DNA of 64,000 nucleotides from a virus (IMGVR_UViG_3300045952_000362:628-64627), one strand, 5' to 3'; shown: positions 150-63,272, counted from the first letter of the stretch. Numbers and translations are program-made. The notes: a model not told the origin generated them from the sequence alone.

Positions 150-385
150 TACGGATTTGCCCCCGGTCGTGCCGCCCCCGCCGTTGCCCCTTGGGGCGTC
201 CGGTCTGCCGGGGTGGGCAAGGCCCCCCGGCCCCGGTTATCGCCCCTGCAGCGGCCCCTAATGGGCGGCAACCCGGCCCCGGCCCCACCGGGGGGACCCC
301 GCCCCGGCCATTAGCGCCCATTGCCGGGGCCGATCGCCCGACGCCGGGGGCGTTGCCCGGTCCCCGGCTTGGCCACGTCCTTGGG
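150..385. repeat. GC-rich phased island 1 (member of a dispersed element family)
   Basis: C/G runs broken by A/T steps at about 219, 238, 248, 260, 270, 311, 321, 333, 353, 370, 381; 210-277 aligns without gaps to 26061-26128. Confidence 0.75.
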
Positions 386-1267
386 GTCGCCGCCACAGGC
401 CTGACAGACCAGCCCATCGGTGTCGTGGTCGAACCAGCCGAAGTCGCCGCCATCCTCCGGCTCGTTGCAGTGCACGCATCGCTTCGAGTCCAGCCGCAGC
501 TGCTGCTCGGCGGTGAGTGCGTTGCTTCGCAGGTTCACCTTCTCTGCGGCCGCACGTCCGTGCCGCATGCCGTCGGCGTGCGCGGTGCGCGCCACCGGCC
601 CGAGCTTGCTCGCGCTCTTCCACGACTGGCCCTTCACGAAGTCGTCCACGGCCTTGAGATCCGACACGCGCACCAACGCCACACACCCGGCTGCGGCCTC
701 CCGTCGCAGTCGTGCGGCCTCGTCATCGTATCGCTCCCCCAGCCGTCGCACGAAGGAGTCGATCCAGTTGTCGCGATAGCCACGCATCCGGTACGTGACG
801 TTCTGTCCGGTCTTGCGCCACTCCTCGACATGCTGGTGGTAGTACTCGTGCCGGGCACGGTCGCTGGCCCGTTCGACGAACCGCTGGAGCACGACGAGGA
901 CGAACTCGCACTGCTCGACTTCGCTCTTGCGCCCGATGAGCGAGAGTCGCGAGCTCTTCGTGTACACCGCGAAGCGGCAGTTGTGTGCGGCCGACACGAT
1001 GCCGGCCAGTCGCTCGATCCACGCCTGTCGTGACTTGCGCATCTCGAGGTCCGGGTACTTCGAATAGTCGATCGGGTAGTTCGCGATCGGGTTGCTGTCC
1101 TGGAACTCCTTGAACTCGATGTCGGTCATCGAGATCTTGTGCTTGGCCAGCAGCCGCTGCATCATCTCCGCGAACGCTTGCGCCTCAGCCTCGTTGCCGA
1201 TGGCCGACGCACTCTCCGCATGACGCTTCAGCTTTCCGATCTTGTCGAGGATGGACTGGTCAGCCAC
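311..1267 (-). CDS. DUF2786-domain protein
   Basis: N-terminal ILDKIGKLKRHAES..NEAEAQAFAEMMQRLLAKHKIS is typical of DUF2786; GTG start at 1267 after GAGGGG; C-terminal CxxC..CxxC. Confidence 0.75.
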   Translation of the reverse strand: MADQSILDKIGKLKRHAESASAIGNEAEAQAFAEMMQRLLAKHKISMTDIEFKEFQDSNPIANYPIDYSKYPDLEMRKSRQAWIERLAGIVSAAHNCRFAVYTKSSRLSLIGRKSEVEQCEFVLVVLQRFVERASDRARHEYYHQHVEEWRKTGQNVTYRMRGYRDNWIDSFVRRLGERYDDEAARLRREAAAGCVALVRVSDLKAVDDFVKGQSWKSASKLGPVARTAHADGMRHGRAAAEKVNLRSNALTAEQQLRLDSKRCVHCNEPEDGGDFGWFDHDTDGLVCQACGGDPKDVAKPGTGQRPRRRAIGPGNGR

Positions 1268-1445
1268 GGGGCACCCCTCTCGGACGCGAACGACGTTCCC
1301 ACTCGACCTCTTCCAGCGCTTGCTCGGGCGAGCGCAACCACGACGCGTACAACTCCGTGCGCGACACGGGACGCTCCCCGTGCTTCGCGATGTCGTAGCG
1401 CAACCACAGACCGACCGCAAGGGCTACGATCAGTACAACGATCAT
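1260..1445 (-). CDS. Small membrane protein
   Basis: Hydrophobic N-terminus MIVVLIVALAVGLWL; RBS GGAGGAGAG; coupled to neighbours. Confidence 0.65.
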   Translation of the reverse strand: MIVVLIVALAVGLWLRYDIAKHGERPVSRTELYASWLRSPEQALEEVEWERRSRPRGVPRG

Positions 1446-1705
1446 GACTCTCCTCCTGGTTGTCGAAGCACCTGCACACCGTAGCGGACCCGACGCTTGG
1501 TCCGTACGGCGTAGTGCGAAAACTTACTGGGCCGATTGTCCCACGCCAACTGCGACGCGTACAGACGCGCCTCACGCAGCAGGTCGAAGAGCACCGGCTC
1601 ATTTGTGCCGTTGCGTTTCACCCGGACGACGACAGCGATGCCGTCCGGGTGCATGGGAGTGGGGTGAACAGCGGTATGCACGGTACGACCACGAAGCTCC
1701 AACAT
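1442..1705 (-). CDS. Hypothetical early protein (3' part duplicated at window end)
   Basis: ATG at 1705 overlaps upstream stop; 1479-1597 identical to 63882-64000. Confidence 0.6.
   Translation of the reverse strand: MLELRGRTVHTAVHPTPMHPDGIAVVVRVKRNGTNEPVLFDLLREARLYASQLAWDNRPSKFSHYAVRTKRRVRYGVQVLRQPGGES
1479..1597 (+). repeat. 119-bp exact direct repeat, copy 1
   Basis: CCGTAGCGGACCCG...AAGAGCACCGG identical to 63882-64000. Confidence 0.95.
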
Positions 1706-3006
1706 CAGTCCACCTCTTCTCCGCGCTCCAGTGCGCGGGCACGTTCCGTGTGACGGGCCGCTGCGGCCATGTCTCCATCCTGCCGAGCGAGACCCGCCAT
1801 CTCCCACTCCTGGTCGGCCCGACGTTTCATCGGGTCCGACTGTCGCTCCCGGAAGCGTGCCTTCTGCTCCGGCGACCACCGGCTGATGTCACGAATTGCC
1901 ATAGCCGTATCCTCCTCCGGTGGCCGAGTGCCACGTGTGCACGATCACGTGCTTGAGCCCCATCGTGCCGCAGTACCGAAGGGTCTCCACCCACGTGCTC
2001 AAGTTCTTGGCGTAGAACCCTTCGATGAAGACGGTGAAGCTGCCGCTGTTGACAACGATCTCGAGCGTGTCCTGCGAGTTCATGACTTGCGCTCCTGCCG
2101 CTTCGACGCGGCGACCGAATACAACGTGTCCACGATCTCCTTCAACTGCTCCGCCCCCTTTTCCAACTCCTCCGGTGTGCGGCCATTCAGACCGCCGACG
2201 TACACGTCTTGGATCAACTTCTGCAACCCCGTCTTGCTGAAATCCTTCATGATGTCCTCCTCTGGACGATGGTGAGCGTACCTTCCAAACCGATCTCTGC
2301 GTATCGAGTGCGCACACGGGGCGTCCCGCGCAGCACCAGACACACCGTGTTCCCGTCCCAGACGACGACCTCCCACCCGTCCGACAGGGCGAGTGAGAGG
2401 CAGACCTCCTGGGGGGTGTTGGGCATGCGCCCGTACTTGCGTTCGAACGTGGTCTTCATCTCGAGAGGAAGAGCAACAGCACGCTGTCGATCGACCCCTC
2501 CGCATCGAAGTGCGCGTACACCGTCGGACGCATCGTGCGCGACGGGTGCGCGTTCTCCTGTTTGAGAAACAGCGCCGCAGCCATCGTGGCCTTGGACGTA
2601 TCACCGTCGCCGTGGTGCACGATGTAGCGATCGGTCTTGTCGTTGTACACGATCTTGGTCACGATGCCAAGATAGGTCGGATGGTCTTTCGTCGCGCGGT
2701 CTTGGATCGACGCCCGCACTGTGTTGTAGTCGCCACCGGCCGCACGGGCCTCGTCGGCCCACTCTGACGCGTATGCAATCGTGTTCATCTCAGTCTCCTT
2801 AATTAAGGTTGGGCGTGCTTCTGAATTTCCTCGGCCAAGGCACGGGCCATCGCCCGGCCCACCAACTGCTCGTCGAACACCCGAGCAGCGAATGCGTGTC
2901 CCACGGCATCGGCCGTGTCCGGGTCGAGACCGGCGTCACGAGCCGCATCTCGACCATGTCGGTAGGCTTCCTGTCGGACCCCGGCAAGCACATCGCGTCG
3001 TCTCAC
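1705..3006 (-). CDS. Run of small translationally coupled hypothetical early genes (1705-1902, 1889-2083, 2080-2250, 2247-2459, 2456-2788, 2799-~3006)
   Basis: Overlapping ATGA/TGATG junctions and SD motifs (GGAGG/AGGAG) on the minus strand. Confidence 0.6.
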
Positions 3007-3248
3007 TGGCGGTCTCCCTTCTCCAACTCGACGACATCGCCCACTAGCACCTGACCGAACCGCTGGGAGGCGACTTGGTTCAGAGGGAGGCCACGCAGCC
3101 GTCCCTCTTCGTTGCAGTATGCTCGCGCACGAGTGCCGGGGACGGCTTCGATCCACCCACCCACAGCCTTCTGCAACTCGTCGAGCGTCACCTTGCGCTT
3201 GCCGAGCACCACCGTCTCGATGGTGCCATCCGTCTTGTAGATTTTCAT
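3003..3248 (-). CDS. DUF3846-like phage protein
   Basis: TLDELQKAVGGWIEAV..YCNEEGRLRGLPLN..LVGDVV signature; RBS AAGGAGG. Confidence 0.75.
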   Translation of the reverse strand: MKIYKTDGTIETVVLGKRKVTLDELQKAVGGWIEAVPGTRARAYCNEEGRLRGLPLNQVASQRFGQVLVGDVVELEKGDRQ

Positions 3249-4906: not shown

Positions 4907-7900
4907 CTATTGCGTGGTCCACGCCCCTCCTCGTGCGTGCGCCGGGGGCGGGTCCACACGCGGTTCACGTGTGCATCGCGCGCAGTACTGGAAGTACAAC
5001 AGATCTTTGCCGTCGGCCATGAGATTCGCCCGCCACACTTTCTTCGGTGCGCGTGTGAACCGATGTCCGACGAGCCAACACCACACGGTCAAAAGTTTTC
5101 TCATGTCAACTCTCCTTCATCAAACGAAACGTTGCATACCACGCATCCGGATTCGTCCAGCGCCCGCTGCCGAACGGCGTCGCTACGGCAATGCCACTGG
5201 CGAGCCCGAATACCTGCGCCGATAGTTCCCTAGCCGTCCGGATCGTGGGGTGCGGGAACGGAAACACCGCCACGTAGCCCTCGGAGTCCGGATGCGCTTC
5301 GATGCGCGTCGGCTCCAAGGACTGCAATCGGTCCCATACAGAACGCGTTTCTGCTGGGATGGTAGGTGCTGCTGCAACGTGTCTTTCAGGCGCTGCAACT
5401 CGCGGGCTACTTTTGCGAACGCCAGCTCGGGGGCCTCGCATGAATGGGCGACCACAACGCGGACACTCGGGGTCGCAGTAGTGGCAGAACACGCGTGCGC
5501 AAGCGCGACACACAATGCGTCGCCTATCGTGGGTCGGACATTTCCGACGACGACGACGCATCGCCCGGTCATAGTCCGCTTGGAGGAGTTTGCTTCGGAG
5601 GTCATCACGCTGCCCCATCGAGCCACCGCACGGTGCCGATGCCCCACGGCCCAAGGATTTCCTCCGACATCGCCGCGTCCTCGTTTGTGATGACGCACCA
5701 CCCTAGCAACTCCCACGCCAACTTGCCTTTGTGATACCGCATGCGGCATCGCAAGATGACGTAGGTGTCCGTGTCGTTTTCCAGCACCGGGTTCTTGGCG
5801 TAGACCTGCTGCCACATTTCAATCGACACGAGACACCGGATAGCAATTTCTGTGCCATCGGGAATGTCCTTGCCCGGTCGATAGTCGGGCAGTTGCTTCG
5901 GGGCGCGGAGCATGTCGCGCCGCACCATCTCACGAATGGAGTCGTTCAGGTTCATGGCTTACTCCAATTCGTTCTTGACGGCTCGTGCGGCATCGCGCAT
6001 CGCCAACACCGCCGTATCCTTCTCCTGCTCGCTGGTGGCATGCACGATGGCGTGGGCCCCGTGTTCGACGGCTGCGGCCAACTCGCGGACCTGCTTCTTA
6101 AGGGCGCGCAAGTTGATGAGAGTGACTTCCTGTGCGGCTCGATTGCGTGGCTTCTTCGTTTTGGTGGCCATGGGACGACTCCTACTGGTGGTTGAACGGA
6201 CCTTCGAAATAGGTGGCATCGGCATCCCACTCGGGATGCTCGAAGAGCCACTGCTGTAACTCCATCGGCAGCAACGCAAAGTGCTCCCGAGGACGGTAGA
6301 TCATCTTGCGTGTGTACGGCCGCCACAGGCGGGCCGCCGGGTGAATCAACAACGTGGTGCCGACCCCGTGGTCGCGCCATGGTTTGGACAGCACCACGGT
6401 CAACTGTCCGTCGTGCCATCCGGTCCACGTGCCGTGGATATGGTCATGACTCCCGTCGTTGCCGAAGACGTCGAGGCACTCGGTGCTCCAATGCGACTTG
6501 GACTTCCACTCGTCGCCGGAGCAGCGCGTGATGAAGGTTTTAGCCTTGGGCACGAGACATCTCCAGGATCTCCCGCAGGGTAGAGATCGTGGTCATGGCC
6601 GTGGAGACCGGGGCCGGCATGCCGGCGATGGACACCTCAGAGCTGTCCAAGGCCTTCAAGACCGCTTCGGCAGCGACCTCCAACGAGCAGTGCCAGCACA
6701 CGTTGTCCACCAGCTCGGGATTCCGGTCCACATGCCGGCAGTTATCAGACCGTGAATCGGCCATGGTGCCTCCTCCGTGGATCCGGCCGCATGCGCACGC
6801 GACTATTTACACCCCAGATCTGCACTTGGAAGTGGAAGTCCGTACCACGCTCGCTGAACTCCGAGTTGATCGAGCACTCCGGCCACGAGATGAACAATTG
6901 CTGCCGGTCATGGGCTCGCAGGATCGCGTTGCAGAACTGTTGAATCCAACGTCGGTCGATCTCTGCGTCGTCAATACCGAAGAGGATGTCACAGGCTTCT
7001 TCGTCGGACATCTCCGGCACTGCCTTCGGCATGTTCTCCGGCGGCACGACCCGTAACACGCATCGCTCGATCGCGATGTTGTCGCCGTCCTCTGCTCCAT
7101 ACCATACGAGCTCGTAGGCCCATCCGGTCTGTTGCACCTTGTCCTCGAGAGTGCCGGCATTGCCGATGCAACGCTTCCACATCTTGCCGGAATACGTCCC
7201 TGTCGGAATGGTGCCGCTGTACTCCGCGAGCTTCTTGAACGTGTCGTACGTCATGTAAGCTCGCGCCCCGTGGAACACGATCTCAGACCGATCGGGCTGA
7301 TTCCAATACCGGCCTTTCGGATCCGTCATGTCAGGGATCTTCATCGCTTCTTCCTTTTCTTGCCCCGGTTGTGCGGGGGCGGGGCAGGGGGCCAACGCGC
7401 CAACACCGTGTCAGTGTATTCGTCGTAGACCCGTGTAATGCGTTTGAATTGGCTGTGGAGACGGATCGCGGCCTCGGTCGCTTCCGTTTGCGTGGCATGC
7501 CGACTGTCCACTACCCAGTCGCTGTAGGAGGGGCGATGCGCTTGCACGAGAAACGGTTTCACCTCAGGGAATGGCTTCACGCGAACTCCCCTGCGTGCTG
7601 CTCGTCGATGGGCCCGAACACGGGAGAGGGCGACGGCCATCCCGGCTCCACACGCATCCACGGGCGCCACCACACCGGCTCGTACTCCTGCTGGGTGGTG
7701 AGACGCCACCGTGTGATAATCACCACGTAGTCCTTCTCTGCGGCAAACACGGCGCGACCGAATTGATCGTGCGTGTGTCCGCAGAGATCGGGATGCACCG
7801 CCCGCAAGAAATCCACAGACACCGGCACCCGCGTTTCCATCCCAGAGATATCCGGGGGGCGTGGAGTCAGTCGTGCGCGATTGCGCATGGCAAAGTGGCT

Positions 7901-8760
7901 GTCGTGGCGCACGAGCTCGACCACCTTTTCTTTAGCGATCTGCATCGGGCTTCCTTTCGATGATCGCCTTGCACACGCGTTCCCACGCCGAGGTGGCTTC
8001 GATGAACCGACTCGCGTCCTGCATATTGTCGCGGTCGAAGTCCTCCCACCGTGGCTGTGGCGGCAGGGTGATGGTCGTAGTTGGTTGCGTCACCACCTGC
8101 ACGACGGGACGCATGGCCCCACCACACTTGCACACGACACTATCCTTCGTCGCGAACTGGTGGTCCCAATCGGTGCAGTCGTTCTTGCGCCGACAGTTCT
8201 CGTTGTCCCTCGCCCCGCACACGGAACATTCGCCCGTGATCCCGCAGTGGCGTGTAATGATTTTCATCGTGTGGACTTCGACGGGCATTAGAGCACCACC
8301 CCATAGCGATCGGCGATGTTGGACAACGTGGCCATGGCGTCGAGGATACCCATGTGGCCGGTGCGCCAGCTACGTTCGTTCAGTGGGGTGCGGCCCCGGA
8401 AGAGCTCGCGTGCCTCCTCCAACGGCAACCCGAGAAAGCGCTCCAGCACTTCCACCCCAGCGGCATCGACGCCATCGGGTTTGGCCCAGCGCTGTTTCAC
8501 CACGTGGTACGCGACACAGCCTCGGTCGCGCGTGAGCAAGCAGCTGCCGTAGTCAAACTCAGCGGGCGGCACTTGCTGGAGGTGGGCATATAACTTCCGT
8601 GCGTTCGGTTCGTTGAACATCCGTCCCTACCGTAGGACCGTCAACAGTGCACCGATCCACAGGGATCGTCAACAGCCATTCGTCGCGCAGAGCTCGCCAG
8701 TCGGGCTCCGATCGGGCCATCACAGCCCTCCTCCCCAGGAAACGAACAACCGCCGGCACC
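4907..8760 (-). CDS. Cluster of about 12 small hypothetical early genes, several Cys-rich (e.g. 4907-5104, 5106-~5618, 5605-5955, 5959-6171, 6182-6553, 6540-6764, 6745-7344, 7577-7945, 7932-8288, 8288-8620)
   Basis: Tightly packed co-oriented ORFs with SD motifs; CxxC motifs in several; no recognisable family. Confidence 0.55.
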
Positions 8761-8840
8761 CGCGGACGGTCCGCGAGAGGGCAATAATTTGCCTCAAAGG
8801 CCCCCCAAGTGCGCCACAGGAATCGTCCACTTGCAAGAAG

Positions 8841-8975
8841 AAGCGACGGTTACATGGTTTTCGACGTCGTGAAACTCGTGTAACCGTCGTTTGTTTTCGT
8901 GGGGGTCAAATTAAAGCGACGGGTACAGGAGTTGCGGAGGCACAGCACGAATTAAAACGACGGTCACATGAGTTG
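8841..8975. repeat. Four copies of a ~20-bp iteron/operator-like repeat (one inverted)
   Basis: AAGCGACGGTTACATGGTT 8841-8859; inverted copy 8873-8892; AAGCGACGGGTACAGGAGTTG 8914-8934; AAACGACGGTCACATGAGTTG 8955-8975. Confidence 0.8.
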
Positions 8976-9124
8976 TCGTGCTCAGCGTGTGGTAGGAAAA
9001 AGAGATTCGATGTGAAGTGGGAGAGGCGAGAACGAGGAAATAGGGGGTGTGTAGCGCATGTGTTTGCAACGATAGGCGAGACACGAGTGGTGGCCGGAAA
9101 CACGGAGTGAAAAGGACGTGAAGG

Positions 9125-9277
9125 GAATTGCGCCGCTATATGGGGGGAGGGAGGAGGGCCGGGTTGCGCCGCAAGCTTGCTCCCCTCAACTCTTCTTAAT
9201 AAAATTTAATTTCATTTAGCAAAAGGTAAGAAGGTGTAGGGGGCACACCCCCCTCCCCCCATTCTTGAGCGCAATTC
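9125..9277. promoter_or_regulatory. Candidate replication origin or packaging site: AT-rich core flanked by bipartite inverted repeat
   Basis: GAATTGCGC-N7-TGGGGGGAGGG (9125-9151) mirrored by CCCTCCCCCCA-N7-GCGCAATTC (9251-9277) around TTAATAAAATTTAATTTCATTT; lies between the divergent arms. Confidence 0.5.
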
Positions 9278-9484
9278 TAAAACGTCGTTTTGCGTCAGGA
9301 AGCATGGTGGTGAATACGGGCTCACCCTTATGTAGTCACATGGGGTGAAACGGGACGGGGCAATTTGGTCCGTGTTCCGGGGGACATTAGGTCCCGTGGC
9401 CATGGTGTGTATCGACAGCAGAAGTGCGCACATTCTCAGTCGTTTGGTACTTCACCGACTACACATGCCACGCGTGAGGACGTG

Positions 9485-9745
9485 ATGCAATTCAAGGGCC
9501 CAGCATTTCCGTCATGGAAAGAACCCACCGCCACTACCCGTACGCTACAAACGCACCACACGTTGGCACCGGGTGAGCAGTACGTACCGCACGAATCCGC
9601 CAACGGCAAAGCCGCACAACGTCGACGCCGACAAATGGCACGCGATCAAGCCAAGCGCTTGCGCAAGCAGTACGGCAGCGATGTGGTGGAAGGCATTGAC
9701 CCCCAGAGTGGCGGGCTGTTGCTGAATTTCACGGAGAAAAAGTAG
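9485..9745 (+). CDS. Hypothetical protein, first late-arm gene
   Basis: GAGGA RBS then GTG/ATG; ORF ends 1 nt before the terS candidate. Confidence 0.5.
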   Translation: MQFKGPAFPSWKEPTATTRTLQTHHTLAPGEQYVPHESANGKAAQRRRRQMARDQAKRLRKQYGSDVVEGIDPQSGGLLLNFTEKK

Positions 9746-9746
9746 C

Positions 9747-10268
9747 ATGGCTACCCGAGGGCGCAAGCGAAAGCCGTTGGTGGGGGGGTGGAAGAAGCGC
9801 CGACCGAACCCGACGGAGCGCACGGTGCTGAGGCGGGCCCTCCGGCAGCTGGAGCAGCCACGACCGAAGGTCAAGCACAAAGCGTTCGATCGTGATGTGC
9901 ACATGGAGACGGTGGAACAGGGAGGCAAGGTCAAGATCCTGTTGAAGAAAGGTTCTCCGGGCCGTGCGAAAGGCGCGACCAATCGTGTGCCACGTGGCGT
10001 GCGTGCGAGTATCAAAGCCATCATCGAAGACGTGGTGAAAGGAAACAGCAAGGATGTACGCACCGCATTCGAGGGCGGGCTGCGTGGCGGTCCCCAGCAT
10101 GCGGATCGCTACCTCAAGTTGGCAGCTGAGTATCTCGATGGCAAGCCTACCGACAACGTGAATCTCAATGCGCGATGGAACCAGGACGAGCTCGCCACTG
10201 CGCGAGAACAACTTGGGAAGAAGTTGAGCAGCATGTTGAGTCTCATCCTCAACAGAGACGAGTCGTAG
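9747..10268 (+). CDS. Probable terminase small subunit
   Basis: Basic N-terminus, KKGSPGRAKGATNRV (GRPKG-like), YLDGKPTDNVNL (GKP motif) typical of terS; upstream of terL. Confidence 0.6.
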   Translation: MATRGRKRKPLVGGWKKRRPNPTERTVLRRALRQLEQPRPKVKHKAFDRDVHMETVEQGGKVKILLKKGSPGRAKGATNRVPRGVRASIKAIIEDVVKGNSKDVRTAFEGGLRGGPQHADRYLKLAAEYLDGKPTDNVNLNARWNQDELATAREQLGKKLSSMLSLILNRDES

Positions 10269-10401: not shown

Positions 10402-10734
10402 ATGACCGTTTTCCTGCTGCTCGTGCTGTTGCTGCTGTGTGTCGTGTTGTACTGCTGGGTCGAAGTCAAACTCGTGCGCTTGCGTCGCCGCTACATCGTG
10501 ATGCTGTTGCACGTGCGTGGTGAAATGTCGCCGGTCGAGATCGCCCGCGAGGTCGGCATGGTGCAAGGCACCGTGTACCCGATGATGCGCGAGTTGGAGG
10601 ACCGCGGACTCGTGCTTCATCGCGTCGAAGCCATCCCGCTGCCGCCCGATCGCGGCTATCTGGTGCGCTTTGCCCCCGGCCGTCACCTGTACCGGGCCAC
10701 TGTTACCGGGGATTCGCCGGTGGAGGCCGCGTAA
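10402..10734 (+). CDS. Membrane-anchored PadR-like winged-helix protein
   Basis: N-terminal TM segment then MSPVEIAREVGMVQGTVYPMMRELEDRGLV. Confidence 0.7.
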   Translation: MTVFLLLVLLLLCVVLYCWVEVKLVRLRRRYIVMLLHVRGEMSPVEIAREVGMVQGTVYPMMRELEDRGLVLHRVEAIPLPPDRGYLVRFAPGRHLYRATVTGDSPVEAA

Positions 10735-10903
10735 TAATGCGTCGGTATTGCACGAACTGCCGCGAACGCCTCACCCTACCCAGCCGATTTCGACGGCTCT
10801 GCCCGACCTGTCGGCGGCCGTTTAACCGGGGCGCACTGGTGGCGTCCCTCGTGTACCTCGTCGCGACCCTCGTAAAACTGCTTATTTCCTTTGGAGGCCC
10901 CCA

Positions 10904-12745: not shown

Positions 12746-13381
12746 ATGGAGCAAACCATATTCCAAGGGTTGGGGCTGCTCCTCGGCACGGGATGCCTGG
12801 GAGCATTGATCCGCATCGCGATTCTTGCGGGCCGGTACATGCAGCGACTGGAAGAGGTGGAGAAGGACATCAAAGAAGTGAAGGATACCGTGAACAGTCT
12901 GGGCAATCGGTTCAATCAGGTGGTTCGCGCTGCGCAAATTCCGGCCGAGATGATGGCGAAGAAAATCAGCGACGCCATCCTGTCACACGCGGCGTGGATG
13001 GGTCCGATGCTACTGCCGTTCTTCGGTATGTACGGATTGCATCCCGACGTGCCGCATCTCCGGGAACTGCCGGTGTTGGCGACGTCACGTCCAACTCCCG
13101 TCGTGGTGACGCGGTCCATGCTCGCGCGAAAACCGAGAGGCGTGGGCGTCCCGACGCGTGGTGAGTCGATCGAACCGGTGAAGACCGCGGTGTTCGCGTT
13201 CATTCAGGAAGGGCCGCGCAGCACGAAATCAATTTACGCACTACCCTTCCCGTACACACGCATCTCGTACGCGATCCGACTGCTGTCGGAGAGTCGCGCG
13301 ATCGAACCGACGAACGCGTGGGACCAGGGCATGTTCGTGCGTGCGTACCAAGTGAAAGCACAGGCAGCAGCCGCCTCATGA
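12746..13381 (+). CDS. Membrane protein with coiled coil and possible C-terminal winged helix
   Basis: TM segment, RLEEVEKDIKEVKD coiled coil, C-terminal AVFAFIQEGPRSTKSI..ISYAIRLLSESRAIE. Confidence 0.55.
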   Translation: MEQTIFQGLGLLLGTGCLGALIRIAILAGRYMQRLEEVEKDIKEVKDTVNSLGNRFNQVVRAAQIPAEMMAKKISDAILSHAAWMGPMLLPFFGMYGLHPDVPHLRELPVLATSRPTPVVVTRSMLARKPRGVGVPTRGESIEPVKTAVFAFIQEGPRSTKSIYALPFPYTRISYAIRLLSESRAIEPTNAWDQGMFVRAYQVKAQAAAAS

Positions 13382-19947: not shown

Positions 19948-19980
19948 TCGCGCTGGCTCCTGAATGAGGCGAACAAACGT

Positions 19981-26018: not shown

Positions 26019-26210
26019 TGGCGGGGGCCGGGGCCGCCTTGCCCGCCTGCAGGCGTTAAGGGGGTGGGCAAGGCCCCCGGTTCCCTCGTTGGGGCCGGTG
26101 TAGGGGCGTTAATGGTCGGCTTCCCGGCGTGCAGCCGGGGCCGGGAGAGCGGGAACGGACGGCCGGGAGACGGCCGGGGGGACGGACGGGGCCGGGGGCC
26201 AGAGGGCAGC
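26011..26210. repeat. GC-rich phased island 2
   Basis: A/T steps at about 26017, 26039, 26049, 26058, 26070, 26081, 26090, 26101, 26110, 26121, 26131; contains GGGGCGTTAATGG. Confidence 0.8.
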
Positions 26211-26212
26211 AC

Positions 26213-42987: not shown

Positions 42988-43216
42988 AGCCCGTTCCCGG
43001 CCCCCCGGCAAGACGTCCGGCGGGGCCGGGAGACGCGCCCCCGCCCCCGGTTTCGGGGCCGCAAGGGGGCGTTAATGGCCAAGGCCCCCCCGCCCCCGCC
43101 CGCCCCGGCCCAACCTGCCGGCCATTAGCGGTCCTATACGGGCCTGAACGGCCCCGCCCCGGCCGGTTGGAACGCCCCCGGAACGGCCCCCGCCCCGCGA
43201 CCGTTAATTGGGTTTG
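42935..43216. repeat. GC-rich phased island 3, at the convergence of the two arms
   Basis: A/T steps at about 43052, 43063, 43073, 43081, 43112, 43125, 43136, 43147, 43169, 43182, 43205, 43214; GGGGCGTTAATGG 43066-43078. Confidence 0.8.
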
Positions 43217-45321
43217 GCGGGCGTCCGTCGCCGCAACACGACGACGTGCGCGGGCCGCGTCAACTCCTCGGGCGTGTCATACAGACGAGCTGCGTGAAGG
43301 TTGTGCAATATGTACGGCGACAGCCGCCACATGAAACGGAACGACGTGCCTTTCTTCTCTACGACTTGCAGCAAATGCAAATCGTCCAGCATGCGACGGA
43401 TGGTGGCATTCGGATACGCGATGTCGGTAGCGAGTTCCACACTGGTGCAATAGTCCTTGTCGGTCGGGCAGCGTTTGTAGATCGCGCGGATGAGATCTTC
43501 CTGTCGCTGCGCCACGGTGTCCAACATAACCTTCACCGCCACGCGGTAGTCGGCCTCGGAGACTTCGCGTCGCCCATGCACCCATGCGAGAGCGCGACAG
43601 AGCTTCGACAGTTGCACCCCCAGACGACTGCCGACCTCGGCAAACGGTCGGCCGATGATGTGCTCGCCTCGGAAGTCCTTCGACACCGTGCCGCGGATGC
43701 GGGCACCGAACCGTGCCAGCGCGATGATGCGTCGCTGATACTCTTGCGACAACGTGGGCACGGGGCCGCGAGGCGCATTCAAGAACGCCGAGGTGACCTC
43801 GGCCAGTTCCTTTTGCATCGCGCTGCTGCGGTCCACATTCTCGATGGCTCGTTGAATGATCTGCTCCTCGCTGTCGTGTTGCAGATTGTCGGCGATGGTG
43901 ACCTTCAAGAACCGTTCGCCGAGCGACGCGTGTCCCTCGCCCAAGTCGTAGATGCGCGGGGTGACACCGGCGATGAACCCGAAACTGCTCTCGTAGCTAC
44001 GTTCGACTCCGTTGCCGAAGATCTTGCCGCAGCGCCCGTCGTACGCGTCACGGAAGATGCCGAAGATCTCGCCTTGGTCCAGGTCGCGCATCTCGAACAC
44101 CGGGGTGAAATCTTTCACGGTCAACAGCTTGCCATTCAGTCTGGGGATGAGCGACGGGTCGCTCTGCCCTTGCCAGTTGGCTCCGGAGATCAGCGCATGC
44201 GGTGTCAGGCTGGACGTGAAGAAAGAGTCCTGCCACGTGGACAGCGCCATCAAGATGGCCGTCTTCGCCGATCCGGGCGGCCCCACGAGGAACAACCACA
44301 GGGGCGGCCCCTCGATCTTCAACGCAAACGCACACGCCAGTGTAATGTCGATGGCGGCCGTATCCTTCAGGAACAGCCACTTGTTGAACACCGCGTGCAC
44401 TTCGGCGAGCGTGGCTGTTTTCTTCTTCGGTTCCTCTTGCGCGAGCTTCCCTTTCTTCAGCACCACCACCTTGCGGCGGTCTGTGCCCTCGCGACGGGGG
44501 TTCGGTCGGAAGAGCTTGTGCAGCTTCTCGAGACAGATGGCGGGGGTGTCTCGTTTGACGGCTCCGTAGACAATCCAATCGCGCGTGTCGAACCCACTCG
44601 GGAGTTCGGCGGGCCAGTGCGTGAACGTGACACTACGCGCCACACCGCGCAACCGCTTCGCTGCCAGCTCCTCGCCGCTGTCGCCGGGTTCGTCCAGATC
44701 GTACAGGGTGTGCACGTCGCGCCCTTTGAATCTCGAGACCCACTCCGGCTTGAACGTGCCGGCACCCGGCAACCCCAACACGACGCCGGGTTTGTCGAGT
44801 GTGCGCAGCAACCAGTTCAACGCGATGGCATCCCACTCGCCCTCGCACAGATACACCGGGTCGTTGGGGCGGGCCGCCAACTCCTGGGACCCGACGAGAC
44901 CGACATCGCAGCCAGCGGTGCTGCGCATCTGCTTCTTCTCGAGGTCGTAGGTGCGTAGATCGTGCAGCTTGCCTCGCTCATCTCGCACCGGCAGCACATA
45001 GTGCGCCCCGTCCCACCCGAACTTCCACGCCTTGAACGCCGCGATGGGGAGTCCGCGGTGCTTAGCCAATGCCGCCATCTTCGCGGGCCGCTCCCGCACG
45101 TCGCGGTAGAGCTCCATCGCCATCCCCAGATACTTCGCCAGTCCGCCCCCTTCGCCGAGGGTCTTCGAATGCCACGCTCCCGTCTTCGTATTGAAATAGA
45201 ACTTGTCAAGCTTCCCGGTGAACGGACAGTCCGCAATCAGTTCGTCACCGCTCTGCCGTTTGAACTCTACGCCATGGGCCGCGTAGGGTCGCGCCTTTGG
45301 GAAATCGTCCACGTCAATCAC
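43204..45321 (-). CDS. Primase-helicase (TOPRIM + AAA+/P-loop + C-terminal wHTH)
   Basis: VYLCEGEWDA and YDLDEPG TOPRIM motifs; LVGPPGSAKT Walker A; FRDAYDG. Confidence 0.88.
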   Translation of the reverse strand: MIDVDDFPKARPYAAHGVEFKRQSGDELIADCPFTGKLDKFYFNTKTGAWHSKTLGEGGGLAKYLGMAMELYRDVRERPAKMAALAKHRGLPIAAFKAWKFGWDGAHYVLPVRDERGKLHDLRTYDLEKKQMRSTAGCDVGLVGSQELAARPNDPVYLCEGEWDAIALNWLLRTLDKPGVVLGLPGAGTFKPEWVSRFKGRDVHTLYDLDEPGDSGEELAAKRLRGVARSVTFTHWPAELPSGFDTRDWIVYGAVKRDTPAICLEKLHKLFRPNPRREGTDRRKVVVLKKGKLAQEEPKKKTATLAEVHAVFNKWLFLKDTAAIDITLACAFALKIEGPPLWLFLVGPPGSAKTAILMALSTWQDSFFTSSLTPHALISGANWQGQSDPSLIPRLNGKLLTVKDFTPVFEMRDLDQGEIFGIFRDAYDGRCGKIFGNGVERSYESSFGFIAGVTPRIYDLGEGHASLGERFLKVTIADNLQHDSEEQIIQRAIENVDRSSAMQKELAEVTSAFLNAPRGPVPTLSQEYQRRIIALARFGARIRGTVSKDFRGEHIIGRPFAEVGSRLGVQLSKLCRALAWVHGRREVSEADYRVAVKVMLDTVAQRQEDLIRAIYKRCPTDKDYCTSVELATDIAYPNATIRRMLDDLHLLQVVEKKGTSFRFMWRLSPYILHNLHAARLYDTPEELTRPAHVVVLRRRTPAKPN

Positions 45322-47906: not shown

Positions 47907-48938
47907 TTACTTCTTCGCCTTCTTCTTGCCCTTGTCCGCCGTCTTCGCCGTTTTCTTCTTCGGCTCATCCGGCGTGTCGAGCACTTCGAGGATGCGATCC
48001 GCCGGCAGCTTCACCTTCTTGCCGTCTTCGGTCGTGACCTTGATAGCGTTCTCGTCTTCGAAGATCTCGGTGACCTCACCGATCTTCTTGCCATCCTTGG
48101 TCTTGACCCGGACACGCGACCCGACGGACAGCGCGACGGATTCGGAGTCGTCCTCTTCTTCGTCGTCGGACTCCTCTTCGTCTTCGCTCTCCTCGTCGTC
48201 TTCCTCTTCGTCGTCGGATTCTTCTTCCTCATCCGACTCCTCGTCCTCGTCTTCCTCCTCGTCTTCTTCGGCCGCCTTCTTCTTCGCAGCCTTGCCCTTT
48301 TTCTTCTTGGGCTCGTCCTCTTCCTCGTCCTCCTCTTCCGCATCTTCCTCCTCGTCGTCGTCGTCGGACTCTTCCTCCTCGTCGTCCGACTCCTCCTCGG
48401 ATTCGTCACCGTCTTCTTCCTCGTCGTCCTCCTCCTCGGCCGACTCGGCGTCCTCGACTTCGTCTTCATCGAGCAGACGGTTGATGCGCACGTTCTGGAA
48501 GTCGCCGTTGGTGACGAGCTTGATGCGGCAGACCGGCTTCTCCTTCTCGACTTCCTTCATGATGTTCGGGATGTCGGCTTCGAAGTCGTCGATCTGTGCG
48601 ATGTCAAAGCCCATCGCCCGCAGATCGCGCAGGAAGTACGTCCAGCCGTCCTCGTTCACCAGACGCTGGAATGCCTTCTTGGTCTTGCCACGGTACTCGC
48701 CCTCGAGGAACTTCCACGAGGTGACGGCCTGCATGTTGCCGGCACTGCTGGGCGCGATCTCGAGCTTCGTGGCACGGGCGACGTACGACCCGTCCTCGAA
48801 CTCCTCGAACCCCTTCGACGCATTGCTCGCAACGGTCTCGCGGAACTTGTTGGCCTTCTTGAGGAAGTCCTTCAGGTTCACCTTCTTGCCCTTGCCGTCG
48901 CCCTTGCTCTTCTGCTCTTTCGGTGCTTTCTTCGCCAC
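47907..48938 (-). CDS. SSB-like protein with very long acidic tracts and C-terminal KOW/SH3-like domain
   Basis: FEEFEDGSYVAR..WKFLEGEYRGK..FQNVRI OB-like N-terminus; about 110 aa D/E-rich region; VGSRVRV..GEVTEI; next to Sak4-like ATPase. Confidence 0.65.
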   Translation of the reverse strand: MAKKAPKEQKSKGDGKGKKVNLKDFLKKANKFRETVASNASKGFEEFEDGSYVARATKLEIAPSSAGNMQAVTSWKFLEGEYRGKTKKAFQRLVNEDGWTYFLRDLRAMGFDIAQIDDFEADIPNIMKEVEKEKPVCRIKLVTNGDFQNVRINRLLDEDEVEDAESAEEEDDEEEDGDESEEESDDEEEESDDDDEEEDAEEEDEEEDEPKKKKGKAAKKKAAEEDEEEDEDEESDEEEESDDEEEDDEESEDEEESDDEEEDDSESVALSVGSRVRVKTKDGKKIGEVTEIFEDENAIKVTTEDGKKVKLPADRILEVLDTPDEPKKKTAKTADKGKKKAKK

Positions 48939-58177: not shown

Positions 58178-59647
58178 TCACGCCACCTCCCCCGGCGACA
58201 GCCGCGTGATCTTCGCGAGACGGGCCGCCACACTGGCCGCCATGGCTTGCGAGAACCGTTTGCTGTCGATCTGTTTGCTCTGCAACGCTTCGACCACATC
58301 CTCGTCCGATGTCCCGATGGTGACCAAGTCGATCACCGTGACCGGGTCCCTCTTCTGGGGATGAATGATCCGGTCCTCCGACTGTCGGCGATCTTCGTGC
58401 TCGTACGTGTTCGAGTAGTAGAGCTCGTAGTTCGCTCTCGAGAGGTCCCACCCGAACTGCCCGAGCGCCACTTGCATCAGCAGCACGCGGGTGTGCCCGT
58501 CCTGGAATCGATCTTGGATGACGGAGCGTTCGCTCTTCGGCATCTTCAGCCCGCCGTGGACCCGTTCGACCTTCACTTTCTTGCGCGTCAGATACTCCCA
58601 GCAGTAGTCGATCTCTTGGTTGAATCGGAACCACACCACCACGCTCTCACGCGGCAGCTCTTCCGTCAGCACCTCGTGCAACAGTCGTGGCTTGCCGTCG
58701 TCCAACAGCACACCATCCTCGGTGGGCGAGAACCCCCCGGCGATCTTCTGCATCCACGTCTCTTTGACGGGGGCCCACTTCGTCTCCGTGCCTTCGTACT
58801 CGTATGACTTGGCCACCTGCTTCAGTGCGCGCATCTGCTTCGGTCCCATGGGGACACTGCGCATCTCGTAACTCTTCTTGCTGCCGATGCCCGCCTTGGC
58901 GCGTGTGAGGATGAAGCTGTTCTGGTGGACGAACGCTTTGATGGCGTCGAGGGTTCCCTTCTTCGGATACCACTGCCCGGCAAACGCCCCGGCGGAGAAG
59001 TAGCGGTGCCGCCATGCCCAGAAGTTTGTGTAGCCCATGCAATGTCCAAGGGTGAACTGGAACTGCGTGAAGAAATCCATGGGCGACTCCGGGTTCGGTA
59101 GGCCCGACAGAATGGCCCGCAGGTCGGCCTCGCCCCGGTTGAGTAACGTCTTCGTGATCTGTGCCTGTGGGTTGCGAATGCGCGTGCTTTCGTCCACGAT
59201 GATGGCATCCCACGGCCAGTCCAAGAGATCGGGGGCCACACGCAGTCCTTCGAAGTGCAGCAGGAACCACCCTTCGGCCTTGCGACGCACCAGCCCACGG
59301 ACGGTGTCACCGGCTCGGGCAAACAAATCGTCGTAGCCTTCAGGAGCCTCTACGATTCCTCGTTCCCACTTCCACCGGGCCGCTGCTTCGCGGTCCTCCG
59401 TCGGCATGTTGCACAACATCGTCACGGTCTCACCGTGCCGGCGCAGGTGGCCTTCCCAGTTGCGTGTGCCCACGAGGGTGTTCCACGGGGCCAACAGCAG
59501 GATACGCCGGGCACCTTTCTCGCGGATCCACTTCATGGTCACGTAGGTCTTGCCGACACGCATCTCGAGGAACAGGGCGATCCGGTCGCGCGTCTTCGCA
59601 TACTGGAAGACGGGACGCTGATGCGGCAGCAGGGTGATGTCGGTCAT
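58178..59647 (-). CDS. SNF2-like superfamily 2 helicase
   Basis: LLPHQ, EMRVGKT, IVDEST, LSGLP, QSEDRII. Confidence 0.9.
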   Translation of the reverse strand: MTDITLLPHQRPVFQYAKTRDRIALFLEMRVGKTYVTMKWIREKGARRILLLAPWNTLVGTRNWEGHLRRHGETVTMLCNMPTEDREAAARWKWERGIVEAPEGYDDLFARAGDTVRGLVRRKAEGWFLLHFEGLRVAPDLLDWPWDAIIVDESTRIRNPQAQITKTLLNRGEADLRAILSGLPNPESPMDFFTQFQFTLGHCMGYTNFWAWRHRYFSAGAFAGQWYPKKGTLDAIKAFVHQNSFILTRAKAGIGSKKSYEMRSVPMGPKQMRALKQVAKSYEYEGTETKWAPVKETWMQKIAGGFSPTEDGVLLDDGKPRLLHEVLTEELPRESVVVWFRFNQEIDYCWEYLTRKKVKVERVHGGLKMPKSERSVIQDRFQDGHTRVLLMQVALGQFGWDLSRANYELYYSNTYEHEDRRQSEDRIIHPQKRDPVTVIDLVTIGTSDEDVVEALQSKQIDSKRFSQAMAASVAARLAKITRLSPGEVA

Positions 59648-59959: not shown

Positions 59960-60343
59960 TCAGGCGCTGGCGGAGTCGCCCGACGCCGCTGCCTCCTTGA
60001 CGATGAGCCGGACCTTCTTCTTGCCGGTCTTCGCCTTGGCCTTCGCCGGGGCCGCTGCCGCCTTCTCGCCATCGCGCACGATCTCGATGGCCCCCTTCTC
60101 GGCGAACTGACGGAGGAGCGACAGCACCATGCCACGCGGATCCTGCTTGGTCTGCTTGTTGAGACCCAGCTTGTTGGCCGCGTCCGTGATCTCCGACGCC
60201 GTGCCACGTTTCACCTGCCGCACCGCCTTGTAGATGGTGGCGGCGATTGCGCCCGTCGGTTCAAGCTTGAGGGCACGCTTGAAGACGTACGACTGGTTCC
60301 ACGTGCGGGCTGCGGCTTCCTTCTTGCTCTGTTTCTTCGACAT
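59960..60343 (-). CDS. Basic winged-helix protein with Lys/Ala tail (linker-histone-like architecture)
   Basis: AATIYKAVRQVKRGTASEITDAA..MVLSLLRQFAEKGAIEIV + AAAAPAKAKAKTGKKK; RBS AGGAG before ATG 60343 (in frame with upstream ORF from 60682). Confidence 0.6.
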   Translation of the reverse strand: MSKKQSKKEAAARTWNQSYVFKRALKLEPTGAIAATIYKAVRQVKRGTASEITDAANKLGLNKQTKQDPRGMVLSLLRQFAEKGAIEIVRDGEKAAAAPAKAKAKTGKKKVRLIVKEAAASGDSASA

Positions 60344-60678
60344 GACTTCTGCTCCTACTGAAATGGCGAGGGCCTCCGCCTCCGCCTGTTGACGTTGCCT
60401 ACGACCTTCACCCGCAGCGAAGTGCTCAGCCATTGCCGTCTCACGGACGGTGCATTGTTCGCAGCCGATCTTCACCCACAGATGAATCTTATTGGGACGC
60501 ACACGGATCAACGTGTGGCCGCATTTCAAATCGATGACATCATGTCCATGCTTGCGCATCCGCGCCCGCTCTCGCATGACGGCACCCTGTGCCGGGTCCC
60601 GGCGTTCCAACTCCCGGAGCTCGTCCTCCGTCTTGGGATCGAAGTGCGTGACCCGCCGCACCTCGCGCATCATGAGTT

Positions 60679-61753
60679 TCATTTCCGTTTCCTCGGGCCC
60701 AGCACCTCGAAGATGCTTTTGGTTTCCGGGAACGGTCCCTCGGTCTCCACTTCGATCGTGGCCGACAGCAGGACCACGAGCTCGTCGCGACGTGCGATCA
60801 GCGCATCGAGCAACGCCAGTGCATCCTTCCGGGAGATACGATTGGGCGTGCTGTCGATGATGCCGCCGATCTTGTCTTCGACGTATTGCAACACATCGGA
60901 CAACCGATCGAACGTCACCTCGTTGAATCGATATCGTTCGAGGCGCACGATCTCATGCTTCGTCCTCATCCTCGCCTCCGCTTCAGTTTCACGAACAGCA
61001 CACCCTGCTTCGGTTTCCACGCCGTGATGGGACGCCAGTCGGGCCGCACCTGCGGCACCGGCATCGGCTTCGGCCGCCGATAGCGGTTGGTGGCCAGACG
61101 CGGCGTCACCCCGGCCCGGTCTGCCAACTCCAACACCAGCATCTTCACGCGACGGGCGTCCGTGGGCCACATCCACAGGGGCCAGTCGCTGCGCCAACGT
61201 TTCTGCCAGTCCCGCTCTCGCGACAATGGGTCGAACCACTGCAACCCATCGCGCTCCAACATCTCGGCATCGCCCAGCTGGAGAGCAAGGGCGTCACGGG
61301 CAGACACCACACCAGCGGCTGGGTAGCGGAGACGCGGGCCCATGCACAGGCACCACGTCCCCTTCTCCACGCCGGTCAGCCACCGGAACAGCGGCCGACG
61401 TTTGACCCGCACCTTCATACGACCACGCAGTTCTCGCACGCGTCGCATGCGAAGAAAGGTTGCAGGGACGAGTGGCCATGTCGCACCGAGACGACGTGAC
61501 CCTGCTGAAATGTCATCACACCCTTGCACTTGTGACACGGCAGTCGAATCGGTTCAGCCAGCTTGCACTTCAACATCGTCTCGAGCTCGTCCTGTTCCAC
61601 GACGACCGATCGCGCCTTGCGGATCCCGAGCCACGGCAAGATGCGCACCTCGCAGAGTGCTTTGCATCGATGGTCCAACCCCCGCACACTGGCGAGATAC
61701 AACGTGCGCACCACGACCACATACAAGGTGCGCTCGCGCCCTTCGTATGGCAT
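60679..61753 (-). CDS. Three hypothetical genes (60679-60969, 60966-61418, 61415-~61753 Zn-finger-like)
   Basis: ATGA-coupled ORFs; CHKC..CDAC in the last. Confidence 0.5.
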
Positions 61754-62193: not shown

Positions 62194-62826
62194 CTAGCCA
62201 TTTTTGCTCTCCTGGAAAATCGTCGAAAAATTTTTCTGACGGGAAACCTTCGACCGAAGATGACGGAGGAATTTGTATCGCGCCAACATCATCGCATACA
62301 ATTTCGGTTCCGGTAGTCGCCCTCCAAACATTTTCCTTACGCGTCTCCGCCAATTAAAAAACGCTCTCTTCTCTCTCGGTTGCTTTGCCCACCACTTCTT
62401 TCGATGGTATCGATTTCGTTCCGGATTTTGATCCCGCCACCGGCGCATCGCTCGTGCGCACTTGTCCGGATTGATCCGTCGATATTTTTTTGCCTCACGC
62501 AGCATCCTCTTTTGATGACGTTTGTAAAACGCTCTCTTCTGGGAGAGGAGCTTGCTGCGGTGCTTGGCTCGCCACGCTCGGCCGTGATTCCGGTACCACT
62601 CCTTGTGGTATGCTCGGACGTGGGCTTTGTTTTTTCGATACCATCGCCGATCCCACATCGCCTTCTTTTTTCGATTCTTCCGTTTCCACTGTCGCTCACG
62701 TTCGCGCACCCGCTGTCGCTGCTCGGGCGACATGCGCTGACTGTAAGCTTTGGCGTATCGAAGAGCATGCGCGCGATTTTTCTTGTACCACTCCCGACGA
62801 TACCGTTGCTTTACAGTCAGCGCCAT
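62194..62826 (-). CDS. Highly basic repeat protein (HNH/NUMOD-type N-terminal repeats, no nuclease domain)
   Basis: Repeated REWYKKNR/RRWYRKNK units; lower GC than flanks. Confidence 0.6.
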   Translation of the reverse strand: MALTVKQRYRREWYKKNRAHALRYAKAYSQRMSPEQRQRVRERERQWKRKNRKKKAMWDRRWYRKNKAHVRAYHKEWYRNHGRAWRAKHRSKLLSQKRAFYKRHQKRMLREAKKYRRINPDKCARAMRRWRDQNPERNRYHRKKWWAKQPREKRAFFNWRRRVRKMFGGRLPEPKLYAMMLARYKFLRHLRSKVSRQKNFSTIFQESKNG

Positions 62827-62837
62827 GGCCCGTCCTC

Positions 62838-63089
62838 CTACTCCAATTGGTCTTTGACCAGTTCACGAAGCACCGTCGGCAGTTTCGCTGCAGCGACGGC
62901 AGTCGCCAGTCGATTCGACTCGGCCGCTCGCACACGAGAGTAGCCACCGATCGCCGATGCCCCGAGTTTCGCTCGGTTCAAACGATTCGGATCGGTACCC
63001 TTGTAGGTGAAGAACGAAATCAATTCGTCCGCACCCAATTCGGCTGCATGCTCGAACTTCTCCATCCGTTTCTTGTCCGTCGGTTTCAT
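62838..63089 (-). CDS. Hypothetical protein
   Basis: RBS GAGGAGAG before ATG. Confidence 0.6.
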   Translation of the reverse strand: MKPTDKKRMEKFEHAAELGADELISFFTYKGTDPNRLNRAKLGASAIGGYSRVRAAESNRLATAVAAAKLPTVLRELVKDQLE

Positions 63090-63124
63090 TGGTCTCTCCT
63101 CTGCCGGAAGACCCGTCCCGGCTC

Positions 63125-63272
63125 GGTCTTTCAGAACCCATTAACGCCCCAAGGCGTGGGGCGGTCCCAAAGGCGGGGGCAACCGGCCCCCCGACCCCCT
63201 GTAGACCGCCCTAATTGCCGCTAACCGACCCGTTCTCCCTCTCCCGGCCCACGCCCCGGCCCCGGTTTACCG
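63125..63272. repeat. GC-rich phased island 4
   Basis: A/T steps at about 63130, 63141, 63151, 63170, 63181, 63202, 63212, 63222, 63233; CCATTAACGCCCC 63138-63150. Confidence 0.8.

Follow-up and report, generated by a model that had tools for sequence, protein, structure and literature searches.

GC-rich islands with helically phased A/T steps in the genome of a soil phage and its relatives

The DNA considered here is a stretch of 64,000 nucleotides (the window), i.e., bases 628-64627 of the 64,627-base contig IMGVR_UViG_3300045952_000362, from a phage that is siphovirus-like as judged from the PHROG and Pfam matches of the window's proteins; its genome is labelled G000, and its relatives carry the labels G001-G006 or L-numbers. 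An earlier reading of the sequence alone (the sequence-only reading) had delimited four GC-rich islands in it, at 150-385, 26011-26210, 42935-43216 and 63125-63272, and had taken their regularly spaced A/T steps for a wrapping or bending signal. These islands are probably a wrapping/bending element that works at the level of the DNA: their A/T steps are phased at 10.45 bp beyond what shuffled sequence gives, and the same texture, with a 10.5-bp phase, recurs in 15 relatives whose islands cannot be aligned and show no consistency of strand or folding. The combination of such a phase with the lack of strand bias and of sequence conservation argues for a function as double-stranded DNA. The islands, with the limits of their spacers, and the gene beside which the family is kept are as follows.

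150..385, no strand: island I1, allele A of a variable locus, GC up to 0.83
26019..26212, no strand: island I2, the non-coding spacer from the frame 25773-26018 to the head-tail adaptor gene (start 26213)
42988..43203, no strand: island I3, the non-coding gap in which the two arms converge, immediately 3' of the primase-helicase gene
63090..63266, no strand: island I4, allele B of the I1 locus, non-coding, between 62838-63089 (minus strand) and 63267-63779 (minus strand)
43204..45321, minus strand: primase-helicase gene, 705 amino acids, with PHROG primase and primase/helicase matches

When GC content was followed in 100-bp windows (mean 0.611, standard deviation 0.050), I1 (0.83), I2 (0.81) and I3 (0.85) formed the three highest peaks of the genome, and I4, with a maximum of 0.76, was comparable to two further places (0.78 and 0.77); the GC-rich zone around I3 extends over 42935-43216. 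The change of texture that had been seen by eye is also found in the counts, with higher odds ratios in the islands than elsewhere for TA (1.37 versus 0.48), AA/TT (2.34 versus 1.03) and CC/GG (1.33 versus 0.81), a lower one for CG (0.85 versus 1.26), and a depletion of GATC, CATG and GTAC; TTAA is about 11-fold enriched and CTAG is absent. The islands are almost wholly non-coding, as the description "mostly intergenic" had implied, apart from edges that overlap gene 3' ends (311-385 and 42935-42987), positions 311-385 of I1 also encoding the Pro/Gly/Arg-rich tail of the minus-strand frame 311-1420. All four come after a stop codon, the extragenic position at gene 3' ends by which repetitive extragenic palindromes (REP) and bacterial interspersed mosaic elements (BIME) are recognised.

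All four islands are real, and they occupy three loci rather than four. The contig carries at its ends two identical flanks only, 1-104 matching 62981-63084 (104 nt) and 2106-2224 matching 64509-64627 (119 nt), between which lie differing inserts of 2001 versus 1424 bases with different genes (window 62354-64000 and 1-1597). These ends are most simply explained by a circular genome of some 62.4-63.0 kb, the assembly of which would have gone round once and taken in two alleles of a variable cassette. Each allele has its own island, I1 in the one and I4 in the other, so that these two are alternatives at a single locus.

Helical phasing was measured with an indicator of AA, TT, TA and AT steps in the 10-11.5 bp band, over the coordinates of the sequence-only reading, against 1000 dinucleotide-preserving shuffles. 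Three of the four islands were significant singly, I1 (p=0.032), I2 (p=0.001) and I4 (p=0.008), with I3 at p=0.49, and a repeat run over whole islands gave 0.032, 0.002, 0.008 and 0.51 in the same order; I3 is not significant over its whole length, but its window 43001-43200 stands at the 99.3rd percentile. Pooled in an autocorrelation statistic (lags 10, 11, 21, 31 and 32 minus lags 5, 6, 15, 16, 26 and 27), the four islands reached z=4.5, which none of 1000 shuffles equalled, and the pooled period was 10.45 bp (bootstrap 95% range 10.30-10.60), the relatives alone giving 10.60. The 10-11 bp signal that autocorrelation or Fourier analysis had been expected to reveal is thus present above shuffles, and the steps listed by eye for I4, from 63130 to 63233, agree with the sequence (gaps of 11, 10, 19, 11, 21, 10, 10 and 11).

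Among 3190 windows scanned, the strongest phasing was found in six, beginning at 10641, 26001 (I2), 201 (I1), 63081 (I4), 4741 and 43001 (I3); sparse, clumped A/T raises the normalised power in this ranking (shuffle means of 3-4.5 instead of about 2), so that the shuffle tests are the firmer evidence for phasing. Two further patches had been named as weaker members of the family. No phasing is seen at 35100-35260 (p=0.97; 23rd percentile). The patch at 10700-10890 is phased more strongly than any other spot (p<0.001), but it lies in coding DNA, made up of the end of a winged-helix regulator gene and a short open frame whose product looks, by eye, like a zinc-ribbon protein with a membrane helix. 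Amphipathic helices have a periodicity of 3.6 residues, or about 10.8 nt, which could account for the phasing in this coding patch. One very strongly phased window (10.25-11.25 bp, normalised power 13-19.5) that is not GC-rich was observed per genome, at 10641-10840 of the window, G002 39041, G003 21121, G004 53841, G005 521 and G006 19341.

Searches with single proteins found no close relatives, neither for the adaptor, primase and capsid proteins in viral contigs nor for the primase in metagenome contigs. When viral contigs were scanned for the motif of the islands (see below), 117 loci were returned, almost all of them single chance matches, with L040 as a true relative. The 33-kb relative G001, reached from a motif match, has a primase that is 50% identical, is syntenic over a stretch matching 17-48.6 kb of the window, and has a 420-bp island at the same place. 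The primase-helicase has 667 homologues, and an alignment of 30 of them was used to fetch 77 loci, of which 24 are GC-rich relatives (primase identity at least 44%, GC at least 0.52). With islands called by the GC criterion alone (a GC window with z of at least 3 within 600 nt past the primase match), an island directly follows the primase-helicase gene in 18 of these 24, at about 50% primase identity, and in none of the eight close relatives with a GC content below 0.5.

Removal of the near-duplicates L128, L134 and L145 left 15 non-redundant relatives for the tests. Their pooled phasing was z=5.4 (0/1000 shuffles), or 3.8 without the two strongest, as against -2.7 for control segments of the primase gene, and loci that have no GC island showed no phasing (n=11, z=-1.7; n=29, z=-1.8). 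The mean spectrum of the relatives' islands peaks at 10.5 bp (3.03 versus a background of 0.86), and the island is the most phased window of its locus of about 5-8 kb in seven of the 15. Conservation in related phages, which had been put forward as a check, was thus borne out in both position and phasing. The texture recurs as well, with TA odds of 1.17 versus 0.53 and an enrichment of CTAG (about 8-fold), TTAA (about 4-fold) and CCTAGG (about 38-fold).

The sequences themselves cannot be aligned across the family, blocks being common to near relatives only, and GC skew on the primase strand varies among relatives, i.e., there is no consistent strand bias. In one pair, L127 and L128, blocks with TA steps are kept amid diverged G/C filler. 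That islands are kept in the absence of alignable sequence suits an indirect readout of DNA shape. Islands can also be new: I2 is a lineage-specific gain of about 190 bp at a junction for which G001 has 17 nt and L253 has 8. A second true island was seen in G002, where it lies some 1 kb upstream of the helicase gene, and the remaining GC-rich stretches, found in G003-G005 and L253, are coding. In L127/L128 (about 5100-5480) and L152 (about 5090-5550), 400-470 nt separate the primase match from the start of the island, and this gap leaves room for an extra small gene, nuclease-like frames being discernible by eye.

Beyond the phasing, the islands of the window have a motif in common. YTAATKG occurs at ten sites (both strands), nine of them inside islands, with three copies in I3 (two on the plus and one on the minus strand) and two in I1.

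43072-43078 (plus) and 43122-43128 (minus): inverted YTAATKG pair in I3, centres 50 bp apart
258-264 (plus) and 308-314 (minus): inverted YTAATKG pair in I1, like that of I3
26015-26021, 26109-26115, 43204-43210, 63138-63144 and 63211-63217: further YTAATKG copies

Related 7-mers of the contig show the same concentration (CCATTAA 4/4, CCATTAG 3/3 and ATTAACG 5/6 in islands, which make up 2.2% of the contig). I1 and I3 have a common unit: a motif copy is followed by about 43 C-rich bases and then by the inverted copy, which is embedded in a 13-mer identical in the two islands. Judged by eye, the DNA enclosed by the inverted pair is about 90% GC. I1 and I2 have 18 identical nucleotides in common, and the blocks common to islands run to 13-18 nt. 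Short internal repeats with at least two A/T, counted in the non-coding parts, were enriched in I2 (p=0.006), less so in I1 (0.056) and I3 (0.072), and not in I4 (0.77); in the relatives the same test gave p<=0.05 in 8 of 14 (Fisher p=1.4e-9), with no single iteron defined.

The motif also touches the coding sequence at the edges of the islands. Three reading frames, 25773-26018, 311-1420 and that of the primase-helicase, have their stop codon within a YTAATKG copy, and the copies produce TAATG stop-start overlaps; by eye, 17-codon frames can be read in I1 and I3 that open at the TAATG of a motif copy and close at the TAG of the inverted one, and I2 (window 26015-26216) has a frame of 34 codons whose end overlaps the start of the adaptor gene as ATGA. 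Such small frames could be due to chance in stop-poor, GC-rich DNA or could serve translation coupling across an inserted island, and a small-peptide reading was set aside; the relatives' islands are full of stops on both strands. Genes that abut islands read on into them and so gain C-terminal tails rich in Pro, Gly, Ala and Arg (L130, L133, L148, L150, L164 and others; 311-385 and 42935-42987 in the window), which stop at the first A/T step that gives a stop codon, and in several relatives the primase frame itself continues into the island as a tail of this kind.

As to how the islands might work, they would act in cis as double-stranded DNA in which stiff G/C runs are broken every 10.45 bp by flexible TA, AA or TT steps; with stiff runs and flexible steps alternating once per turn, bending would prefer one plane and the DNA could lie wrapped on a protein surface. 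The partner that we infer from the sequence, and propose tentatively, is host DNA gyrase, the islands being built-in strong sites comparable to the strong gyrase site (SGS) of Mu and to BIME-2 repeats in E. coli. Their placement, with I3 at the 3' end of the replication operon, I1 or I4 at the other end of the module and I2 inside the late operon, would draw gyrase to the positive supercoils piled up by transcription and replication.

The gyrase reading was followed up, as had been proposed, by scoring both strands with a 130-column frequency matrix from E. coli Topo-seq (Sutormin et al. 2019; PMC6379681, supplement DS10). According to that paper, the gyrase motif has a consensus of 69% GC with periodic arms of 10.75 bp, BIME-2 elements are transcription-independent strong gyrase sites, gyrase is enriched downstream of transcription units, and no E. 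coli site scores above about 15, the pSC101 site scoring 16. Applied to a 6-kb segment of Mu, the matrix placed the annotated gyrase cut site first, with 12.50 (shuffles 5.2 +/- 1.5, 0/1000 as high), which validates the implementation. In the window, the following sites were found.

42970-43099: in I3, score 16.83, the best of the window
43122-43251: in I3, 16.69, second
156-285: in I1, 14.27, third
25914: at the edge of I2, 12.72, fourth
63168-63297: in I4, 12.22, sixth
235-364: in I1, 11.79

The four best sites of the window thus lie in or at the edge of islands with scores at or above Mu's 12.5, on an E. coli matrix that may not fit the gyrase of the host. Against shuffles, the scores of the four islands gave p=0.021, 0.057, 0.001 (I3) and 0.032, and most of the score came from the periodic arms (z 3.2-5.4) rather than from the centre (z 1.5-3.1). 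Among the relatives, the island holds the best gyrase-matrix site of its locus in 10 of 15, the second best in four and the fourth in one, and 13 of the 15 scores exceed the shuffle mean (Fisher p=0.005). On this matrix the islands are the predicted best gyrase-type wrapping DNA of these genomes, largely by virtue of their composition.

Several observations weigh against the gyrase reading or limit it. GC content makes up roughly two thirds of the matrix score, as shuffled islands reach 9.2-12.2 already, and the arrangement of bases adds 2.2-4.6 units in the islands versus 7.3 in Mu. The score is individually significant (p<=0.05) in only two of the 15 relatives, and whole-island phasing, taken singly, is likewise below 0.05 in two of the 15 (Fisher p=0.0016); the phasing is real yet modest for any single relative's island. 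The island period (10.30-10.60 bp) is slightly below that of the gyrase arms, and the matrix comes from E. coli, the hints to the phage's host, which are weak, being of Planctomycetota. Gyrase needs no specific motif, yet nine of the ten YTAATKG sites fall within islands, and short internal repeats are enriched in more than half of the relatives tested (8/14). It had further been argued that one island sits exactly where the transcription arms converge and positive supercoils would build up. I3 does lie between the last plus-strand gene, which ends at 42987, and the last minus-strand gene, which ends at 43204, but the constant neighbour in the family is the primase-helicase gene and not the convergence, a convergent next gene being present in only about half of the relatives (by a crude call based on GC at third codon positions).

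The comparison with known strong gyrase sites is similarly mixed. The Mu and pSC101 sites resemble the islands in being GC-rich DNA with A/T once per helical turn, intergenic and phage-borne. The Mu SGS, with 43% GC, is AT-richer and scores through its arrangement (+7.3 over shuffles), the islands mostly through composition (+2.2 to +4.6). Compared with the gyrase motif, the islands are long, 180-420 bp or several footprints, and their period is 10.45 instead of 10.75 bp. The islands also bear a genome-specific motif.

The serious rival follows from the constant neighbour of the islands, which encodes a primase-helicase with a putative C-terminal winged helix. The islands would then be origin-like arrays: the winged-helix domain of the primase-helicase would bind the island repeats 3' of its own gene and wrap the DNA, as in the origins of Staphylococcus aureus pathogenicity islands (SaPI), and the remaining islands would be secondary origins or helper sites. 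We regard this as possible but somewhat doubtful; gyrase leads, the origin-like array comes close behind, and the two are not exclusive. The last ~100 residues of the primase-helicase look like a winged helix-turn-helix after an AAA lid, on profile matches that are marginal or sub-threshold (HTH_IclR below threshold in 8 of 14 members, AAA_lid_2 in 8 of 14); the best match of the C-terminal profile to a solved structure is TubR (4asn), at a marginal E=0.0065. The island comes after this gene in 18 of the 24 GC-rich relatives whatever gene follows, and it moves with the replication module into phages of unrelated structural genes. In the window the YTAATKG copies stand in both orientations, and short internal repeats are enriched.

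Precedents for a cis element downstream of the initiator gene also exist. SaPI Rep helicases bind, through a C-terminal winged helix, 6-12 iterons that lie directly downstream of rep in opposite orientations (PMC9371898), and the origin of pRN1 is located within 166 bp downstream of its primase-helicase gene (PMC4234260). Both are like the islands in placing a cis element, with repeats in both orientations, directly 3' of a primase/helicase gene whose product ends in a winged helix, a putative one in the present phage; they differ in having an AT-rich centre or a 100-nt stem-loop, whereas no DNA of this genome is richer in GC than the islands, which are found at three loci. The origins of phage P4 (ori and crr) and SPP1 (oriL and oriR) and the O-some of lambda are further systems for comparison. 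So is TubR-tubC, where arrays of short repeats at about helical-turn spacing wrap a protein filament, TubR being the nearest solved, if marginal, match of the primase tail. R1 ParR-parC, in which a short-repeat array is wrapped around or along a protein filament, is comparable to it. Neither a partition motor nor a small centromere-binding gene was found in this phage, and the domain in question is part of a replication protein.

What speaks against origin-like arrays is, in the first place, that no AT-rich unwinding stretch lies in or beside these GC-richest segments of the genome. Where relatives have no GC island, the DNA past the primase gene is also free of a repeat array (p<0.05 in 1/4, 0/4 and 4/29); I2 is dispensable in relatives, and the region 8620-9747 is a more conventional origin candidate. 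A link between the winged-helix domain and the motif was looked for and rejected: motif sharing tracks overall relatedness, the pairs that share island motifs being simply the closest relatives overall.

That the islands are selfish or neutral GC-rich repeats, REP-like or like miniature inverted-repeat transposable elements (MITE), that spread in the genome and have no function of their own is unlikely. It would fit the gain of I2, about 190 bp where two relatives have 8-17 nt, the second island in G002, and the common 13-18-nt blocks, together with the unit that an inverted repeat encloses, its motif centres being spaced by 50 bp. Neutral spread does not, however, predict a 10.45-bp phase common to islands that cannot be aligned, nor a position after the primase gene that is kept at ~50% protein identity. 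The MITE version was rejected in particular, as only I1 and I3 have an inverted pair, I2 and I4 lack a partner copy as well as terminal repeats and target duplications, and the flanks of the motif are themselves conserved. The likeness to REP and BIME-2 lies in GC-rich, extragenic elements at gene 3' ends that sometimes touch the stop codon and are present or absent between relatives, and BIME-2 elements are the ones reported there as gyrase sites independent of transcription (PMC6379681). REPs are stable imperfect palindromes present in high copy in the host chromosome, whereas the hairpin potential of the islands is weak and their folding hardly exceeds that of shuffles.

It seems improbable that the islands are arrays to which some other protein binds, whether a winged-helix protein of the phage (59960-60682 or 10402-10734) or a nucleoid protein of the host that would coat and bend the DNA, with a role in regulation, partition-like handling or compaction. 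An island-specific motif, helical phasing and internal repeats would all fit such arrays, and the phage does encode a MarR/TrmB-like regulator as well as the frame 59960-60682, with weak winged-helix leads. No link was found between either gene and the islands, and homologues of 59960-60682 occur in three of the six relatives searched. The product of this frame, named as 59960-60343 in the sequence-only reading and suggested there for binding assays, has no family match, and nothing ties it to the islands. Among the 72 frames compared with Pfam there is no topoisomerase and no histone, HU/IHF, ParB or ParR-like family, and among the 47 compared with PHROGs no chromatin protein; of the two partners originally offered, host gyrase or a phage chromatin protein, the first is the leading candidate and the second has no candidate family in these frames.

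An element that acts as RNA (a structured 3' untranslated region, a terminator, a stabiliser or a small RNA) is the least probable alternative: although the islands are placed inside operons or at operon ends, have a G-rich transcribed strand in all four cases in G000 (skew +0.10 to +0.27) and, in I2 and I3, form some long hairpins (z about -2.1), Rfam 15 gives no match, either for the window at gathering threshold or for I2 and I3 at E<=1, no sigma-70 promoter or intrinsic terminator was found in or beside any island, no tRNA or tmRNA occurs in the window, folding is in weak excess (z -0.15 to -1.65 in G000, <=-2.6 on either strand in 5 of 14 relatives, 0.0 in L160, the most phased), a strand-consistent skew is absent among relatives, and a 10.45-bp phase has no RNA rationale.

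The remaining setting of the islands, from the same protein family matches, is that of a genome with a plus-strand structural arm and a minus-strand replication arm.

13318-14745, plus arm: large terminase
18153-19427, plus arm: major capsid protein
26213-27109, plus arm: head-tail adaptor
plus arm: portal, protease, major tail protein and tape measure
45318-47438, minus arm: DNA polymerase
58178-59647, minus arm: helicase
minus arm, replication genes: nucleases and thymidylate synthase

Between the capsid and head-tail adaptor genes lies a sugar-modification cluster (19964-25780) with a DegT-type aminotransferase, a hexapeptide transferase and three or four glycosyltransferases, part of which is common to G001, G005 and L253. 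The minus-strand gene 47907-48938 encodes a protein of 343 amino acids with a long acidic repeat block, rich in Asp, Glu and Ser and interrupted by lysine-rich patches; it has no family match, and its N-terminal part is kept in all six relatives searched (36-48% identity). The two arms diverge at 8620-9747, a large, non-coding and AT-richer region at the minimum of the cumulative GC skew with inverted repeats at 9125-9160/9242-9277 and 8873-8901/8946-8974, which is a conventional candidate for the early promoters and the origin.

No cultured relatives were found, the best phage records covering at most 31% of the primase at less than 30% identity. The sequencing runs that hold the phage are soil metagenomes, and the hints to the host are metagenome-assembled genomes with weak primase matches that are labelled Planctomycetota and Nitrospirota, among others. 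Three RNA libraries contain short phage contigs from both arms; among the matches listed, none of the RNA contigs bridges I3, from which no conclusion on transcription is drawn, and the contigs of one DNA run break inside I3 (43101/43123), from which likewise nothing is concluded.

In the literature consulted, phage strong gyrase sites rest mainly on the one case of Mu, and in the open-access text searched for phage GC-rich phased islands or other phage strong gyrase sites only the Mu work was found. The islands could, though we put this forward with reserve, represent a new class of phage cis-element, "wrapping islands", which would be defined by shape, inherited with the replication module in a large clade of uncultivated soil phages and able to seed copies, and would serve either as portable strong gyrase sites or topological boundaries around the replication genes, or as GC-rich origins with a collar formed by the winged helix of the primase-helicase. 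They might be searched for in metagenomes by a simple rule, i.e., a GC z-score of at least 3, TA odds above 1 and a 10.5-bp phase directly 3' of a primase-helicase gene. If the islands are origins, they are built on the most GC-rich DNA of the genome, against the usual rule of an AT-rich unwinding stretch. If the element is what it appears to be, indirect readout can conserve it while no alignable sequence is kept, and ordinary homology searches would therefore miss it. And if gyrase-type sites are indeed present throughout the clade, the control of DNA topology would be a common and selectable part of phage genome design.

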